Assembly (NCBI GenBank): GCA_944389535.1
Contig: CALXMS010000002.1
Location: 129,041-193,040, forward strand
Length of the DNA stretch: 64,000 nucleotides
Source of the DNA: an uncultured Alphaproteobacteria bacterium
Lineage (GTDB): Bacteria; Pseudomonadota; Alphaproteobacteria; Rs-D84
Reading direction: 5' to 3'
Under the pieces are notes generated by a model that had not been told where the DNA came from, ran no database searches, and saw only the letters and a program-made list of their open reading frames with translations. A program made the position numbers and the translations under genes. Shown one piece after another: positions 2,684 through 64,000 of this stretch (positions are counted from its first letter, which is position 1; every line of letters begins with the position of its first letter).

Positions 2684-3691
2684 TTAACTGTCCTTTTTTA
2701 CAAGGCAATGTAGATATTCAATGGTTTCGTTAGCGGATATATTGCGGTTTTCATCTTTGTCAGCCTTGAACCTGCGATACGTTTTTGTATAAAAAGAATA
2801 TTCGCCATACTTTGACATTATATCTTTGATTTGGTCAAGGGACATAAGCCCCTCGTTATTATAGCTCAAGAAGATGTATTTAAACTTTGCTTTCTTAATC
2901 AAATCTTCAAAAACGTCGCATACGGTTTTTGCAGAACAAAATGCGCTTTTTTGATCGGAATAATTTCTAAGACCCGTGACCCCCTTAACGGTTGGGTTAT
3001 CATATTTTGCGATAGTTTCAAGCACATGATAATTTGCACAGTACTGGCGTTCATTATATGGTGGGTCCAGGTATAATACATCGCCCTCGATCTCATTTAC
3101 CAGTTCGTTAATATCTTTGTTATAAGCTTTGCCTTTTGGACCGTTTACAATCGGCAATGGTTCCAATATAAAATCCTTTGCTGCGGACTTTTTGATGTTT
3201 TTCAGAAAAGCACCGTACACAGAAGCTGTATTTGCATATTTATCAATAGAATTTATAAGAGAAGCTAAATAATAGAAATAAGTGTCTTTATCAATTTCAT
3301 TTGCTTTAAGCAATTTTTCTAGCTCTGTTCGTATGGCATCGCATTTTCTGCCATTGGAATCTGTAAAATAATTCCTGCCGGAACCAGATCCAGCACAATA
3401 ATTATTATAAATAAAGCCGTCAATTCCTGGTAATGAATTTAGATGATCCAACAAGTCTGTTCGTACGGAATCAGTGTTTTCTATCAGGTGTTTATTTACA
3501 ACAAAACTGTAATATTGCAGGTCATTTGATAGAACTTTGCAGCCAAGGCCTCTGTAATATGCCCCAACAACACCTGTACCGGCAAATAAGTCTGCAAAGG
3601 AATAAGGGGTGCCATCTTCGTAATTAGTAACTTTCTTGACGGTTTCGTGTAAAAAATCTAATAAAGAGTACTTCGACCCTATGTAATTCAT
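2684..3691 (-). CDS. Dam-like N6-adenine DNA methyltransferase (MethyltransfD12 class)
   Basis: 335 aa. N-terminal 'MNYIGSKYSLLDFL...FADLFAGTGVVG' and 'LYLDPPYN' motifs are characteristic of the Dam/DpnM/T4 Dam family. Confidence 0.85.
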   Translation of the reverse strand: MNYIGSKYSLLDFLHETVKKVTNYEDGTPYSFADLFAGTGVVGAYYRGLGCKVLSNDLQYYSFVVNKHLIENTDSVRTDLLDHLNSLPGIDGFIYNNYCAGSGSGRNYFTDSNGRKCDAIRTELEKLLKANEIDKDTYFYYLASLINSIDKYANTASVYGAFLKNIKKSAAKDFILEPLPIVNGPKGKAYNKDINELVNEIEGDVLYLDPPYNERQYCANYHVLETIAKYDNPTVKGVTGLRNYSDQKSAFCSAKTVCDVFEDLIKKAKFKYIFLSYNNEGLMSLDQIKDIMSKYGEYSFYTKTYRRFKADKDENRNISANETIEYLHCLVKKDS

Positions 3692-3937
3692 CCGCGTTTC
3701 CTTAAATGTTTCTCAACAATCCTTAATACAGTTAAATATCGTTGTTGAATGATAAGCATTTTTTGTGCAAAAAAGCAAATGGTTTTTAAGCTTGTTTAGA
3801 AAAACTTATGAAAAAACAATTTGTTGAATAAAATAATTTTTATGTTTCTATGTTTTTTTCACATCGCTGACATTTGAAATAATTTGCGCTGGATCCGGCT
3901 GAGTAACCAGGCTTGTTGGCAAAAATATAAAAATAAT

Positions 3938-3970
3938 AAAAACACCGCCTTTTGTGGCGGTGCTTTTTTC
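3938..3970. terminator. Bidirectional rho-independent terminator hairpin (CACCGCC-TTTTGT-GGCGGTG) flanked by A and T runs
   Basis: Perfect 7-bp GC-rich stem followed by a T-run on the + strand and preceded by an A-run; terminates the minus-strand TA operon. Confidence 0.6.
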
Positions 3971-3981
3971 AAACATATTGC

Positions 3982-4317
3982 TTACATAGCTGTTGCTATG
4001 TTCGCTTTTTTATTGTCGTTAGATGCTTTTGGAGTAAAACTGACTTTTAAACCTAATGCATCTATTGTTTTAAATACTGTTTCTACATTAGGACGACGTG
4101 CCCCAGAGAAACTTTTATATAAAGATTCGCGACCTACACCTATCTCTTTTGATATTTTATTTATGCTACGTGCTTTGGCAACATCACCAAGAGCTATTAA
4201 GAAAAATTCAATATCATTTTCTTCCCACGCAGCTTCAAGATAGTTAGCGATATCTTCTTCTGTTTTAAGATGATCAAGAATGTTCCATTCTGTCACCTTG
4301 TTACGCTCCTTTTTCAT
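3982..4317 (-). CDS. Addiction-module antidote protein (HigA-like, HI1420/TIGR02684-type antitoxin)
   Basis: 111 aa. AAGGAG RBS 6-7 nt upstream. Lies immediately downstream of the toxin gene in the toxin-first (HigBA-like) order. The sequence resembles the HI1420 antidote family. Confidence 0.75.
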   Translation of the reverse strand: MKKERNKVTEWNILDHLKTEEDIANYLEAAWEENDIEFFLIALGDVAKARSINKISKEIGVGRESLYKSFSGARRPNVETVFKTIDALGLKVSFTPKASNDNKKANIATAM

Positions 4318-4348
4318 TTTTTACTCCTTTGAGTAAAGTAGTTTCATA

Positions 4349-4639
4349 CTACTGGTTTGCCAAAATTTTCTTGGCTTTTTCTATATCTGACTGTTGGGTT
4401 GATTTATCGCCGCCAATCAGTAACAAGATTATTTCCTCGCCTCGTTGGGTGTAATAAACCCTATAGCCTGGACCATAATCTATGCGCAACTCGAAGATGC
4501 TATCCCCCACAGATTTGCAATCGCCAAAATGTTCTTGGGTAGCAATTCGTCTGAGCCGGACGTCTATCCTTGCCTTCGCTTTACTATCTTTTAATTTGTT
4601 ATACCACCTTAAATACTCGTTTGTTTCTACTATTACCAT
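4349..4639 (-). CDS. Addiction-module killer protein (RelE/HigB superfamily, HI1419/TIGR02683-type toxin)
   Basis: Contains 'FGDCKSVGDSIFELRIDYGPGYRVYY...LLIGGDKSTQQSDIEKAK', the hallmark of the HI1419 killer family. The ATG at 4639 has a GGAGC RBS. The six-frame track begins 2 codons earlier at a TTG. Confidence 0.8.
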   Translation of the reverse strand: MVIVETNEYLRWYNKLKDSKAKARIDVRLRRIATQEHFGDCKSVGDSIFELRIDYGPGYRVYYTQRGEEIILLLIGGDKSTQQSDIEKAKKILANQ

Positions 4640-4717
4640 TTTCAAAGCTCCATAACTGATTTCGTCCAGTCCCTACGTCCTTCATATACTCTCCCTTGTT
4701 GTTTTTGTTCGTTATTA

Positions 4718-4737
4718 TTGTATCCAAATGGATACAA
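4718..4737. promoter_or_regulatory. Perfect palindrome TTGTATCCA-AA-TGGATACAA upstream of the toxin-antitoxin operon; probable autoregulatory operator
   Basis: 9-bp perfect inverted repeat with a 2-bp spacer, about 80 bp upstream of the toxin start codon. Confidence 0.45.
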
Positions 4738-4765
4738 AAAGTCAAGAATTTTTTTATAAAAATTT

Positions 4766-5074
4766 TCACTGTGCTAAAACAGTCTTTTTCCACGATGCAG
4801 CCATTTGGGATAATTTGCGCTGGAGGCAGCGCAGTAGCCAAGCCTGGCGAAAGGTAAGTTTGCCGCCATTTGTTCTGCGTATTGCCGCTTCTAGTTTGCA
4901 TAACGAACGACAGGCGGCAAAGTAGAGCATAGTAAAATTTGTATTATGGTTAGGTTGTATCTCGTCAAAGTGCTTATACTTCATGTGCGTCCCCTTAAAA
5001 AAGTTGTCGTATTTGTGCTTATCTTTCCAAGATTGTCCAGTCATTTGTTCATAATGACAAAAATAAAAATACAC
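4766..5074 (-). CDS. Hypothetical ORF, possibly a gene remnant. The region has overlapping ORFs on both strands and no recognisable domain.
   Basis: 102-aa open frame; no RBS or domain recognised. Confidence 0.2.
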   Translation of the reverse strand: MYFYFCHYEQMTGQSWKDKHKYDNFFKGTHMKYKHFDEIQPNHNTNFTMLYFAACRSLCKLEAAIRRTNGGKLTFRQAWLLRCLQRKLSQMAASWKKTVLAQ

Positions 5075-5194
5075 AGATGTACACCAGATGTGTGATTTTT
5101 TGCAGAAAAAGGTTGGTATGCTGCGGTTTTTACTTTTGTGACAGACGGACTAGCGTTCCATAGTTCGCAGGCAAAAAAGGGCTCTTTTCAGGTA

Positions 5195-5307
5195 TGAAAT
5201 CAATACTGAAATCAGACCTGAAATCATACTGAAATCAGGTATGATTTCATCACGGTTTCATCTATGATTTCAAGTATGAAATCTGTGTGATTTCAGAGAT
5301 GATTTCA
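5195..5307. repeat. Phased array of ten 8-bp motifs: TGAAATCA x4 direct, then mostly the inverted form TGATTTCA, spaced 11-12 bp
   Basis: Motif starts at 5195, 5207, 5219, 5230, 5242, 5253 (degenerate), 5265, 5277, 5288 and 5300. Mean period is about 11.7 bp. Located between the TA/remnant region and the 3' end of tRNA-Asn. Confidence 0.8.
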
Positions 5308-5450
5308 GCAGTAATGGTATATATTACTGTGTGTCAAATATATGTTTTTGTTTTATAACTAGGGCAATTTAGAGCCATTTTATCCAATTTTGCATAAAAA
5401 CGGGGTAGAAAACAGACAATAAAAAATCCGCAGAAATCTGCGGAAATCTG

Positions 5451-5526
5451 TGGCTCGGGCAACTGGACTCGAACCAGTGACATACGGATTAACAGTCCGT
5501 TGTTCTACCGACTGAACTATGCCCGA
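5451..5526 (-). tRNA. tRNA-Asn (anticodon GTT)
   Basis: 76-nt cloverleaf on the minus strand. 7-bp acceptor stem TCGGGCA/TGCCCGA, anticodon loop CTGTTAA, T-loop GGTTCGAGTCC, encoded CCA. A hairpin at 5421-5446 follows the 3' end. Confidence 0.9.
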
Positions 5527-5650: not shown

Positions 5651-6466
5651 ATGCTACTGAAAGGAAAAAAAATTCTAATTACAGGCGTTGCTAACGACTG
5701 GTCTATGGCTTGGGCTATCGCTAAACGGGCTCATGAGGAAGGTGCGGAAATCGCAATGCCATACGCTATGCCTAACCTGGAAAAGCGCGTGCGCCCGCTG
5801 GCAGAATCCATCGGCGCTAAATTCGTCCAGGAATGTAACGTGCAAAACGATGAACAGATGGATTCTTTGTTTGATAATATCGAAAAAGAATGGGGAAAAT
5901 TAGACGGTATGTTACACGCCATCGCTTTCTCTGATAAAAATGAATTGACAGGGCGCTATGCAGATACAACGCGCGCAAACTTTAAGAATACAATGGACGT
6001 TTCCGTATATTCTTTGGTGGATTTAACCAGACGTGCTTCTAAACTTATGACAGATGGCGGAAGTATCGTAACGCTGACTTATTATGGCGGCGAAAAGTCC
6101 GTGCCAAATTACAACGTTATGGGTGTCGCAAAATCTGCTCTGGATAGCAGCGTTCGTTATCTGGCTTCTGATTTGGGACGCGATAAAATTCGTATTAACG
6201 CAATTAGCGCAGGACCTATCATGACATTAGCGTCTTCTGGCGTTGGAGGAATGAAGTCTATGTTGCGTTTGAACGCAGAACAAACACCATTGCGCCGCAA
6301 CATGACGCTGGATGACGTTTCTGGTGCCGCAGTTTACTTGTTAAGTGATTTGTCTAGCGCCGTTACGGGCGAAGTTCATCATGTTGACTGTGGATATTCA
6401 ACAACTGGTATGATACCAAACGAATTGAAAGAGGTTCTATTAAAAGGCTTAGATGAGCAGAACTAA
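5651..6466 (+). CDS. fabI: Enoyl-[acyl-carrier-protein] reductase (NADH) FabI
   Basis: 271 aa. The N-terminal Rossmann motif 'ILITGVAN' and overall similarity to the FabI SDR family, plus a conserved Tyr/Lys catalytic region. Confidence 0.9.
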   Translation: MLLKGKKILITGVANDWSMAWAIAKRAHEEGAEIAMPYAMPNLEKRVRPLAESIGAKFVQECNVQNDEQMDSLFDNIEKEWGKLDGMLHAIAFSDKNELTGRYADTTRANFKNTMDVSVYSLVDLTRRASKLMTDGGSIVTLTYYGGEKSVPNYNVMGVAKSALDSSVRYLASDLGRDKIRINAISAGPIMTLASSGVGGMKSMLRLNAEQTPLRRNMTLDDVSGAAVYLLSDLSSAVTGEVHHVDCGYSTTGMIPNELKEVLLKGLDEQN

Positions 6467-63484: not shown

Positions 63485-63575
63485 GGAGACGTCGCATAGT
63501 TGGTCTAGTGCGCCACATTGGAAATGTGGTATACTCGCAAGGGTATCAAGGGTTCGAATCCCTTCGTCTCCGCCA
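63485..63575 (+). tRNA. tRNA-Ser (anticodon GGA) with long variable arm
   Basis: 91 nt. Acceptor GGAGACG/CGTCTCC, anticodon loop TTGGAAA, long extra arm, T-loop GGTTCGAATCC, encoded CCA. Confidence 0.85.
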
Positions 63576-63582
63576 GGAATAA

Positions 63583-63620
63583 TAAAAAAGACATATAGTT
63601 TATATGTCTTTTTCTTTTTG
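63583..63620 (+). terminator. Rho-independent terminator (AAGACATATA-GTT-TATATGTCTT plus T-run)
   Basis: Perfect 10-bp stem followed by TTTTCTTTTT. Confidence 0.7.
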
Positions 63621-63765
63621 CCTAAAAAGCCTCAGAAAAGCGGCTGTTTTTTATGGTTGAAATCCTATAATTGACTCTGGTATGTTATTCTGTATCAGAA
63701 ACAAGCAAATTTTTGCCATGTTACATACATCGCTAAAAAACGGTGTGTCAATTTTGGAGCAAAAA

Positions 63766-64000
63766 ATGACAAAACGAGTATTTTTTCTTGGAGCGGGCTT
63801 TTCTAAAGCTATTATTCCTTCGTTCCCATTAATGAACGAATTAACCAATGATGTTGCGCAGTATTTTGAGAAAGAATCAATAGGTCATCATTACAATAAA
63901 GAAGTAACGAAAGCTCTGAAAAACAATGTAGAGCATTTGCTAACCTTTTTATCTACAGATTTGCCGTGGAAGACCGAGGTGCAAAAAAATGCAGACATAG
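63766..64000 (+). CDS. Partial (5' end only) ORF encoding a SIR2-like N-terminus (FFLGAGFSKA... motif); runs off the window
   Basis: 'RVFFLGAGFSKAIIPSFPLMNEL' resembles the NAD-binding GAGxS start of SIR2-family domains (PF13289-like) found in defence proteins. Truncated at 64000. Confidence 0.4.
   Translation, partial: MTKRVFFLGAGFSKAIIPSFPLMNELTNDVAQYFEKESIGHHYNKEVTKALKNNVEHLLTFLSTDLPWKTEVQKNADI

Follow-up and report, generated by a model that had tools for sequence, protein, structure and literature searches.

The tRNA-Ser locus at the end of the window

The window analyzed here is a stretch of 64,000 nucleotides (nt) from an uncultured Alphaproteobacteria bacterium (contig CALXMS010000002.1, positions 129,041 to 193,040), and our subject is its 3' end, where a tRNA-Ser(GGA) gene is followed by the beginning of a gene for a SIR2 protein. 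Near-identical copies elsewhere indicate that the complete gene encodes a stand-alone SIR2_2 protein of 333 amino acids (aa), and comparisons between contigs suggest that it stands at the left end of a phage-like element inserted at the tRNA by a serine integrase. The features of this region are the following:

63485-63575, plus strand: tRNA-Ser(GGA), called by ARAGORN and matched by Rfam RF00005 with 59 bits
63568-63581, plus strand: 14-nt common core CTCCGCCAGGAATA, consisting of the last 8 nt of the tRNA and 6 further nt
63585-63620, plus strand: AT-rich 13-bp hairpin flanked by an A-run and a T-run, with arms AAAAAGACATATA/TATATGTCTTTTT and loop GTT
63657-63686, plus strand: candidate sigma-70-like promoter (TTGAAA, 18 nt, TG-TATGTT)
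63756-63759, plus strand: Shine-Dalgarno-like GGAG, 6 nt ahead of the ATG, read from the sequence
63766-64000, plus strand: SIR2_2 (SIRim-type) gene, first 78 of 333 codons, with the GAGFS loop at residues 9-13 and the start of a helical subdomain

An earlier model-made reading of the letters alone (the sequence-only reading) had proposed a tRNA-Ser(GGA) followed by a new open reading frame (ORF) at 63766, and both were confirmed, the tRNA by ARAGORN and Rfam and the ORF by a frame that stays open across 63766-64000. From the ATG at 63766, the ORF translates as MTKRVFFLGAGFSKAIIPSFPLMNELT..., comprising 78 codons, beginning MTKRVFFLGAGFSKAIIPSFPL and containing no stop up to 64000. The window ends 767 nt short of the SIR2 stop codon and covers 23% of the gene; that the remainder lies beyond the window had been rightly anticipated, with the frame open at 64000 and full-length relatives of 333 aa.

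The hairpin starts ten bases past the 3' end of the tRNA, and its stem is almost entirely composed of A/T. Folding of the surrounding 96 nt gave -22.9 kcal/mol (z = -3.07 compared to shuffled sequences), and the hairpin looks like a bidirectional terminator. However, a consensus terminator scan gave no call on 63585-63620, because the stem has fewer than 3 G-C pairs. The earlier description as a strong terminator was therefore somewhat generous in its wording, while the hairpin with its T-run and significant fold stands. The promoter matches the consensus at 9 of 12 positions and has an extended -10 TG, but it stays only a candidate for the SIR2 gene, because such sites are not found in this region above shuffled expectation.

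From a 78-residue fragment to a 333-aa SIR2_2 protein

Everything concerning the DNA beyond 64000 was read from near-identical copies elsewhere, and the comparison sequences are all metagenomic. Exact-pattern scans for the window's ORF in collections of genome and metagenome contigs gave no hit, so that its own continuation was not recovered. Taken alone, the fragment is weak evidence for a SIR2 protein: it had no Pfam match, because the Pfam SIR2_2 domain begins only at residue 122, and in PADLOC it matched generic SIR2 models only (E = 1.4e-4 and 2.4e-4). A word-indexed homologue search with the fragment returned three short pieces, including P0001 on contig L007, which shows the same rpoZ/tRNA-Ser synteny and an orthologous gene split by a frameshift in an A-run, the second part carrying Pfam SIR2_2. 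Searching with the repaired L007 protein then yielded 495 relatives, nearly all of them 325-350 aa long. The 78 residues of the window are 100% identical to residues 1-78 of P0128 (333 aa) and to residues 29-106, as called, of P0005, the best of the 495 relatives, whose 90% cluster has 17 members.

The called N-terminal extension of P0005 is the translation of the window's own leader, as public gene calls start at an upstream TTG or ATG (window 63682-63765) and give 361-aa and 349-aa versions. P0128 begins precisely at the Met of the window's ORF, and homologues share this start position (MTKRVFFLGAGFSK). Since the start at 63766 agrees with both the family alignment and the GGAG at 63756, 333 aa is likely the true length and the 349-aa and 361-aa calls are probably over-extended. 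For annotation, the gene should accordingly be called from the MTKRVFF start with 333 aa, rather than with 349 or 361.

The syntenic orthologue in L007 (5555-6567) shares 60% aa identity with full-length P0005 and 73-77% over the N-terminal 78 aa. Next to it comes a GT2 glycosyltransferase gene in place of an integrase gene, and the orthologue looks like a decayed, immobilized copy, unless its frameshift is a sequencing error.

The identity of the complete protein was examined with the window-type copy in L011 (906-1904, corresponding to P0128), in which GAGFS (9-13) is joined by NYD (127-129) and KLHGS (186-190). Pfam SIR2_2 (PF13289) matched it with 29.3 bits (gathering score 24.5), as it matched 60 of 60 aligned homologues, and the PADLOC generic SIR2 models reached E = 3e-12. 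An AlphaFold2 model built on the 60-homologue alignment (mean predicted local distance difference test score 85.3, predicted template modeling (TM) score 0.87) consists of a SIR2 Rossmann fold with a helical insertion at residues ~23-116. Only SIR2 proteins were among the Foldseek matches in the PDB, headed by the SIR2 subunits of SIR2-HerA from E. coli and others (8sub, 8wld; E ~5e-10, TM score 0.55-0.61, 14-16% identity) and followed by classical sirtuins (CobB, Sir2Tm, Sir2Af2) and SPARSA. A sequence-profile search of the PDB likewise identified two SIR2-HerA SIR2 proteins, 8w9l (8w9l_A; E = 1.4e-7) and 8j4u (E = 2.5e-4), with which the TNYD and KLHGSxNW motifs align.

Invariant in all 60 sequences are G9, G11, F12 and S13; N127, Y128 and D129; as well as K186, H188, G189 and S190. 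In the same alignment, no cysteine is invariant, and we therefore conclude that the protein lacks a zinc ribbon or module, as has been described for SIR2_2 (PMC12700824). With a SIR2_2 score above the gathering threshold, a Rossmann fold and retained GAGxS, NYD and KLHGS motifs, the proposed SIR2-like start for binding nicotinamide adenine dinucleotide (NAD) holds, and domain content marks the full-length form as a bona fide SIR2_2 protein. The sequence-only reading had named a missing SIR2 fold or a CobB-like protein as grounds for withdrawing it; we found the fold present and the zinc module missing. The profile is that of the SIR2_2 or 'SIRim' immune sirtuins (PMC12700824; 10.1101/2024.09.18.613514) and not that of CobB-type deacylases.

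An integration hotspot at the 3' end of tRNA-Ser

Up to 63570-63589, contigs encoding the window's exact RpoZ protein match the window with 98.8-99.9% identity. Three of them extend well past the tRNA, namely L001 (98.8% identical) as well as L003 and L004 (99.8%), and all three are unrelated to the window after 63581-63589; L008, which reaches approximately 100 nt past the tRNA, continues with L001-type sequence. In L001, the site is occupied by the two-gene candidate system PDC-M46 (PADLOC E = 1e-130 for A and 4e-186 for B), followed by a convergent serine recombinase gene. L003 and L004 carry a gene for a coiled-coil/transmembrane protein instead, followed in L003 by a related recombinase gene.

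Conversely, the same insert was found in divergent hosts. In L101, core genes (dacA, a miaB-like gene and others) share 70-72% DNA identity with the window, but from the tRNA onward identity rises to 99.0%; in L011, the rpoZ region is 78% identical to the window compared to 99.1% for the element; and between L101 and L011, the values are 81% for rpoZ and 99% for the element. Overall, identity within the segment that starts with the last 8 nt of the tRNA amounts to 98-99.5%, compared to 70-80% for the core genes of the hosts concerned. Near-identical strains diverging from ~63582 and one insert shared by divergent hosts both indicate that the 3' end of tRNA-Ser is a real integration hotspot, as had been suspected.

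The tRNA-Ser adjoins the SIR2 element or one of the alternatives in L001, L003, L004, L008, L101, L102 and L103. The core CTCCGCCAGGAATA is common to all integrated variants, that is, to the SIR2 type (window, L011, L101, L102, L103), the PDC-M46 type (L001, L008) and the coiled-coil type (L003, L004), and divergence starts after it. We therefore infer that 63568-63581 is the putative crossover region of the serine integrase, that is, part of the left attachment site (attL), to which the 3' end of the tRNA contributes the attB side. A repeat of the tRNA 3' end, which had been suggested as a check, was searched for in the window and not found; the far end of the element lies outside the window, and with a serine integrase as the recombinase, a long direct repeat of this end would not be expected.

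Between the SIR2 element and the alternative ones, the integrases share only 52-56% protein identity. Therefore, related but distinct elements compete for one site, each with its own defense cargo between attachment (att) site and integrase gene. A single element with swappable cargo was rejected on the same integrase values.

With regard to the alternative cargo, PDC-M46 occupies 9526-11969 in L001, and its B component is an LmuB/SMC-like ATPase. The protein encoded at 2557-3669 in L003 is of a 354-370-aa type with a long coiled coil and C-terminal transmembrane helices, for which only weak LMBR1 and JetC-like coiled-coil matches were obtained.

Furthermore, a conserved, structured-looking segment of 126-150 nt (...AAGGGTTYGAACCGYCGCAAAAAGGCGGA...TTTGCGCGAATGCGCAAA...) was observed in L007 (5233-5397), L011 (571-715) and L012 (~6290-6440). 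In related species, the tRNA-Ser is followed by a terminator hairpin of its own and by this segment, at whose end the 3' end of the tRNA is repeated over 19 nt (AATCCCTTCRTCTCCGCCA). This second copy, a would-be pseudo-attB, precedes the SIR2 gene in L011 and L007. In L012, the segment lacks the 19-mer and travels with the SIR2 gene in a non-tRNA context. No RNA family was found by Rfam in the SIR2 leader or in the segment, which may be an old att remnant or host DNA taken up by aberrant excision.

The element on other contigs

In four copies outside the window (L011, L100, L101 and L102), the SIR2 gene is 98-99.5% identical to the window at the DNA level. Its upstream neighbor is the att site, and its downstream neighbor is a convergent integrase gene whose 3' end overlaps the SIR2 stop codon by 32 nt. 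The integrase, as encoded in L100, is a 531-aa large serine recombinase with Pfam Resolvase and Recombinase domains (phrog_95, E = 4e-94).

L100, a contig of 52.7 kilobases (kb), contains the 14-nt core and a SIR2 segment 99.5% identical to the window, but here the core is preceded by 430 nt of repeat-rich non-coding DNA in place of the tRNA. Beyond this DNA follow genes for a ParB-methylase (ParB-MTase, phrog_498), a DUF5681 protein and the large terminase TerL (phrog_38, E = 1e-85). On the far side of the integrase gene follow DUF2924, a KAP NTPase (PDC-S20), Dam and DpnII-type restriction-modification (R-M) genes, an M78 peptidase/Beta-protein pair and a P4 cII-like gene. An integrase gene beside the att site and packaging genes, by which large-serine-integrase elements are recognized, were both found on copies outside the window. 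From this arrangement, we infer that L100 shows a phage-like element in its circular or attP form and that the attL of this element is what the window contains. The hairpin sequence is present in the L100 junction, which is of the non-integrated type, and in all element copies; by this comparison, the hairpin is element DNA and not host DNA. In annotation, the DNA past 64000 should likewise be treated as mobile-element DNA. What the sequence-only reading took for an islet after the tRNA is indeed a mobile insert, but probably no small island: a phage-like element of far greater extent would have its left end here.

On the phage side of the core in L100 (9370-9803), several copies of a AAATTCCCTG(T/C)AAATACCCTGT-like motif were observed, which also occurs upstream in L012. 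These could be candidate binding sites of ParB-like or recombination-directionality proteins.

Proposed role of the SIR2 gene

In L100, L101, L102 and L011, no HerA-, TIR-, STAND-, SLOG- or prokaryotic Argonaute (pAgo)-type partner was found beside the SIR2 gene. The protein is a stand-alone SIR2 without a partner gene. The partners suggested by the sequence-only reading (TIR, HerA or a STAND NTPase) were thus not found, the next gene in all four near-identical copies being that of the convergent serine integrase.

We favor the explanation, with a probability of roughly 0.7, that ~63568-64000 is the attL of a serine-integrase phage-like element whose first gene encodes a 333-aa stand-alone SIR2_2 protein, likely as anti-phage cargo. 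According to this model, a large serine integrase would insert the element at the 3' end of tRNA-Ser(GGA), and the integrated element would comprise, in order, the att core, the terminator-like hairpin, the SIR2 gene (forward), the convergent integrase gene, DUF2924 and further defense genes, with the ParB-methylase and the large terminase at its far end. The right junction (attR) would be expected tens of kb on, in the form ...TTCTTACAA-CTCCGCCA, followed by host DNA. The SIR2 protein, as a cargo ('moron') gene product, would guard the lysogen through abortive infection: an infecting phage would trigger it, and it would then hydrolyze NAD+ or use it for ADP-ribosylation, acting without a dedicated partner in the manner of lactococcal AbiH. 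By analogy with other immune sirtuins, an NAD+-consuming abortive-infection effector protecting the lysogen is the most likely function, because the NAD pocket and the catalytic Asn/His are conserved, a zinc/peptide-binding module is lacking and the contexts of the family are exclusively of defense type. The NADase chemistry, the anti-phage role, the trigger and an intact window copy past 64000 are all presumed in this explanation. Candidates for off/on control are the helical insertion of the structural model (~23-116) and oligomerization.

Several observations weigh against this explanation. The window's own copy could be truncated or frameshifted past 64000, as its L007 orthologue is. The contigs used for comparison all come from metagenomes, and a chimeric join at the tRNA here and there is possible, although four independent contigs with the same junction count against this. 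In L100, the terminase is followed by defense-type rather than structural genes over the 10 kb read, and within the 21 kb of L100 that were read in total, no structural phage genes were found; the element could therefore be a satellite or decayed element rather than a prophage. Neither a megablast search with L100 nor a tblastn search with the SIR2 protein gave a match among cultured-phage records, and IMG/VR contains only 6 distant relatives. Finally, the window-type protein does not match the AbiH model at E <= 1 and has no PADLOC AbiH match.

Genomic contexts of the family and alternative explanations

The SIR2 protein belongs to a large family, with 583 clusters (50% identity) at E <= 1e-30 and 5,072 at E <= 1e-10 in an exhaustive hidden Markov model search. 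Members are mostly 325-350 aa long, and their taxonomic distribution is patchy, including gut Alphaproteobacteria, Elusimicrobia, Gastranaerophilales, Muribaculaceae and Campylobacter jejuni. Neighborhoods were compared for 45 loci, of which 43 came from GTDB species-representative genomes and two from the metagenomic contigs L007 and L012, and no neighbor gene is conserved across them.

The commonest context is a type I R-M operon, with type I components within 6 kb of the SIR2 gene in 12 of the 45 loci (HsdM-like clusters in 8, HsdS-like in 12 and HsdR-like in 9). Eight loci show the arrangement hsdM-SIR2-hsdS-hsdR, and in five of these (L021, L022, L023, L029 and L030), SIR2 comes directly after hsdM, and the stop codon of the one overlaps the start codon of the other, implying co-translation. 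The type I Pfam assignments were confirmed on L021, and the embedded family members come from Elusimicrobia, gut Alphaproteobacteria, Gastranaerophilales and Muribaculaceae. These loci speak for the possibility that SIR2 is a latent 'second-line' toxin guarding R-M, like the anticodon nuclease PrrC that the type I R-M enzyme EcoprrI keeps inactive, and that it fires when a phage anti-restriction protein disables the R-M system; a connection of Sir2 to type I R-M has been proposed before, as has the analogy to PrrC (PMC3506569). In the window's element, SIR2 would then act together with the element's own R-M modules, as DpnII-type and other methylase/R-M genes lie near it in L100, or free-standing. 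However, the window-type element has no type I genes adjacent to SIR2, which forms a transcription unit of its own with a separate leader, and 33 of the 45 loci have no type I genes nearby; we consider this explanation unlikely. Some family members at least may, by analogy, be PrrC-like guards of restriction enzymes, as their frequent translational coupling to hsdM suggests.

It is also conceivable, though distinctly improbable, that the SIR2 protein serves the element itself, as a lysogeny/addiction module or as an NAD-dependent ADP-ribosyltransferase acting on host or phage targets. A position beside attP and the integrase gene is typical of lysogenic-conversion genes, and SIR2_2 and SirTM relatives are able to ADP-ribosylate (PMC12700824; PMC3506569). 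On the other hand, the family is widespread away from the ends of mobile elements, in R-M operons and defense islands, and the equivalent slot in sister elements holds PDC-M46, a recognized candidate defense system.

That SIR2 could be the effector of a multi-gene system (Thoeris, SIR2-HerA, SPARSA, Avs5/SIR2-STAND or DSR) with its partner just past the window has been largely refuted, and we give it very little credence. While the closest solved structures are SIR2 subunits of SIR2-HerA, and the Argonaute-associated SIR2 models of PADLOC match weakly (E = 2e-9), the four near-identical copies have only the att site upstream and the overlapping convergent integrase gene downstream. Moreover, the 333-aa protein consists of the SIR2 domain only, without SLOG, APAZ, STAND or a long C-terminal sensor, and no HerA-, TIR- or pAgo-like neighbor recurs in the 45 loci.

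A housekeeping sirtuin (CobB-like protein deacylase) standing beside the tRNA by chance has next to no probability left, although CobB, Sir2Tm and Sir2Af2 are among the structural matches: strain comparison and domain content refute it, as the gene is absent from strains 98.8-99.8% identical to the window, is 99% identical across hosts with core genes ~71% identical, lies between att site and integrase gene, and encodes a protein that matches SIR2_2 only, not the canonical Pfam SIR2 (PF02146), and lacks conserved cysteines for a zinc module.

Further contexts among the 45 loci include positions beside a KwaB-like protein and beside a RhuM/Fic protein, and after an unannotated protein of 225-237 aa. 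The gene for the latter precedes SIR2_2 in three alphaproteobacterial genomes, abutting or overlapping its start (L020 9264-9977, L024 9295-10008, L025 9331-10008). No Pfam or PADLOC match was found for the three proteins, and the L020 version is not obviously related to the other two; together with SIR2_2, they could represent a two-gene variant of the system. In L012 (8328-12791), SIR2 (copy P0006, 87% aa identity) adjoins an R-M-like module: downstream of it lie the remnant of a truncated recombinase gene and, further on, genes for a C5 methylase, a 712-aa HATPase_c_3 protein and a 356-aa protein.

P0007, a 68%-identical relative, is encoded inside a 6.5-kb island of methylases, an HNH protein and HigBA. 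This island corresponds to a second tRNA-linked variable site, which in the window extends over 3935-5526 at a tRNA-Asn (5451-5526, minus strand). Beside this tRNA, the window holds HigB/Gp49-like (4349-4645) and HigA-like (3982-4317) genes, with a D12-class adenine methylase gene upstream (2684-3691). In the related metagenome-assembled genome GCA_944392775.1 (L014/L020 4454-12499), the tRNA-Asn site contains the additional 6.5-kb block, bounded by a 116-nt repeat of the tRNA-Asn region and encoding an N6-MTase/Eco57I protein, a C5-MTase, an HNH protein, a 237-aa protein and P0007, a SIR2_2 protein of the same family.

Returning to the SIR2 gene as anti-phage cargo of a serine-integrase element, the 78-residue fragment is now defined as part of a stand-alone SIR2 immunity-type gene on an element that moves from one gut species to another and competes with other defense-carrying elements for one tRNA site. 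A large family without a dedicated sensor offers a convenient minimal system for studying how a bare SIR2 domain is switched between off and on, and its frequent insertion in type I restriction operons provides a testable link between restriction and abortive infection. Activation by self-assembly has been reported for other SIR2_2 proteins and for the filaments of human FAM118B. Tentatively, and with less than even odds by a wide measure, the bare 333-aa SIR2 might combine sensor and effector in itself or guard restriction systems in the manner of PrrC; its helical insertion would then sense a phage product or an inactivated co-resident R-M enzyme, and activation would proceed through self-assembly. 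If true, the family would constitute a widespread single-gene NADase immunity module that joins restriction and abortive infection.

Comparison with known systems

SIR2_2 defense enzymes, solo AbiH-like sirtuins, the association of Sir2 with type I R-M and defense cargo at prophage att/integrase junctions have all been described already. The gene at the window's end is a genuine but rather ordinary case, a minimal single-gene SIR2 on a recently transferred element.

AbiH of Lactococcus lactis (PF14253) resembles it as a single protein of ~340 aa without a partner gene, with a SIR2-like fold and an occurrence on mobile elements; AbiH is found on lactococcal integrative and conjugative elements, and a partner-free sirtuin-like action has been proposed (PMC13064643). 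Weak AbiH matches were obtained for 28 of 60 family members (best E = 1.3e-5, not compared with the model's curated threshold), but the window-type family is better described by SIR2_2 than by the AbiH model.

The SIR2 subunit of SIR2-HerA (8sub, 8suw, 8uae, 8wld, 8w9l, 8j4u) is both the closest solved structure and the closest sequence-profile relative, with aligned TxNYD and KLHGSxNW motifs, a length of ~340-400 aa and no zinc module. However, identity is limited to 14-16% at TM scores of 0.55-0.61, and membership was rejected, as no adjacent co-directional HerA-type ATPase is encoded in L100, L101, L102 or L011, and none recurs in the 45 loci.

ThsA, DSR1/DSR2, Avs5 and the SIR2-APAZ protein of SPARSA share the SIR2_2/SIRim catalytic domain, and NAD+-depleting abortive infection would be expected for all of them. 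They differ in having a fused or partnered sensor (SLOG with the TIR protein ThsB; long C-terminal repeats; a STAND NTPase; APAZ with a short pAgo), whereas the window-type protein consists of the bare domain with its helical insertion. Thoeris ThsA was rejected, since the protein has a SIR2_2 domain only and its gene lies between the att site and the serine integrase gene; DSR1/DSR2 and Avs5 were rejected because a single domain of 333 aa stands against ~1000 aa with a C-terminal sensor or STAND NTPase; and SPARSA was rejected because the weak Aga_SIR2 matches cover the SIR2 core only, without an APAZ region or a pAgo neighbor.

The Sir2 proteins of type I R-M operons (Makarova et al. 2012, Biol Direct 7:40) are comparable in that members of the same family lie between hsdM and hsdS; the window-type copy, in contrast, is solo cargo at an att-integrase junction, outside an R-M operon. 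In this position, it is reminiscent of the hotspots of P2/P4 prophages and satellites (10.1101/2021.01.21.427644) and of defense morons beside integrase genes. While the window-type element differs from these in using a large serine recombinase at a tRNA 3' end and in its low-GC, gut Alphaproteobacteria-like hosts, both have a fixed slot at the att site and integrase gene that receives varied defense cargo, which in the related elements studied here is SIR2, PDC-M46 or the coiled-coil/transmembrane protein.

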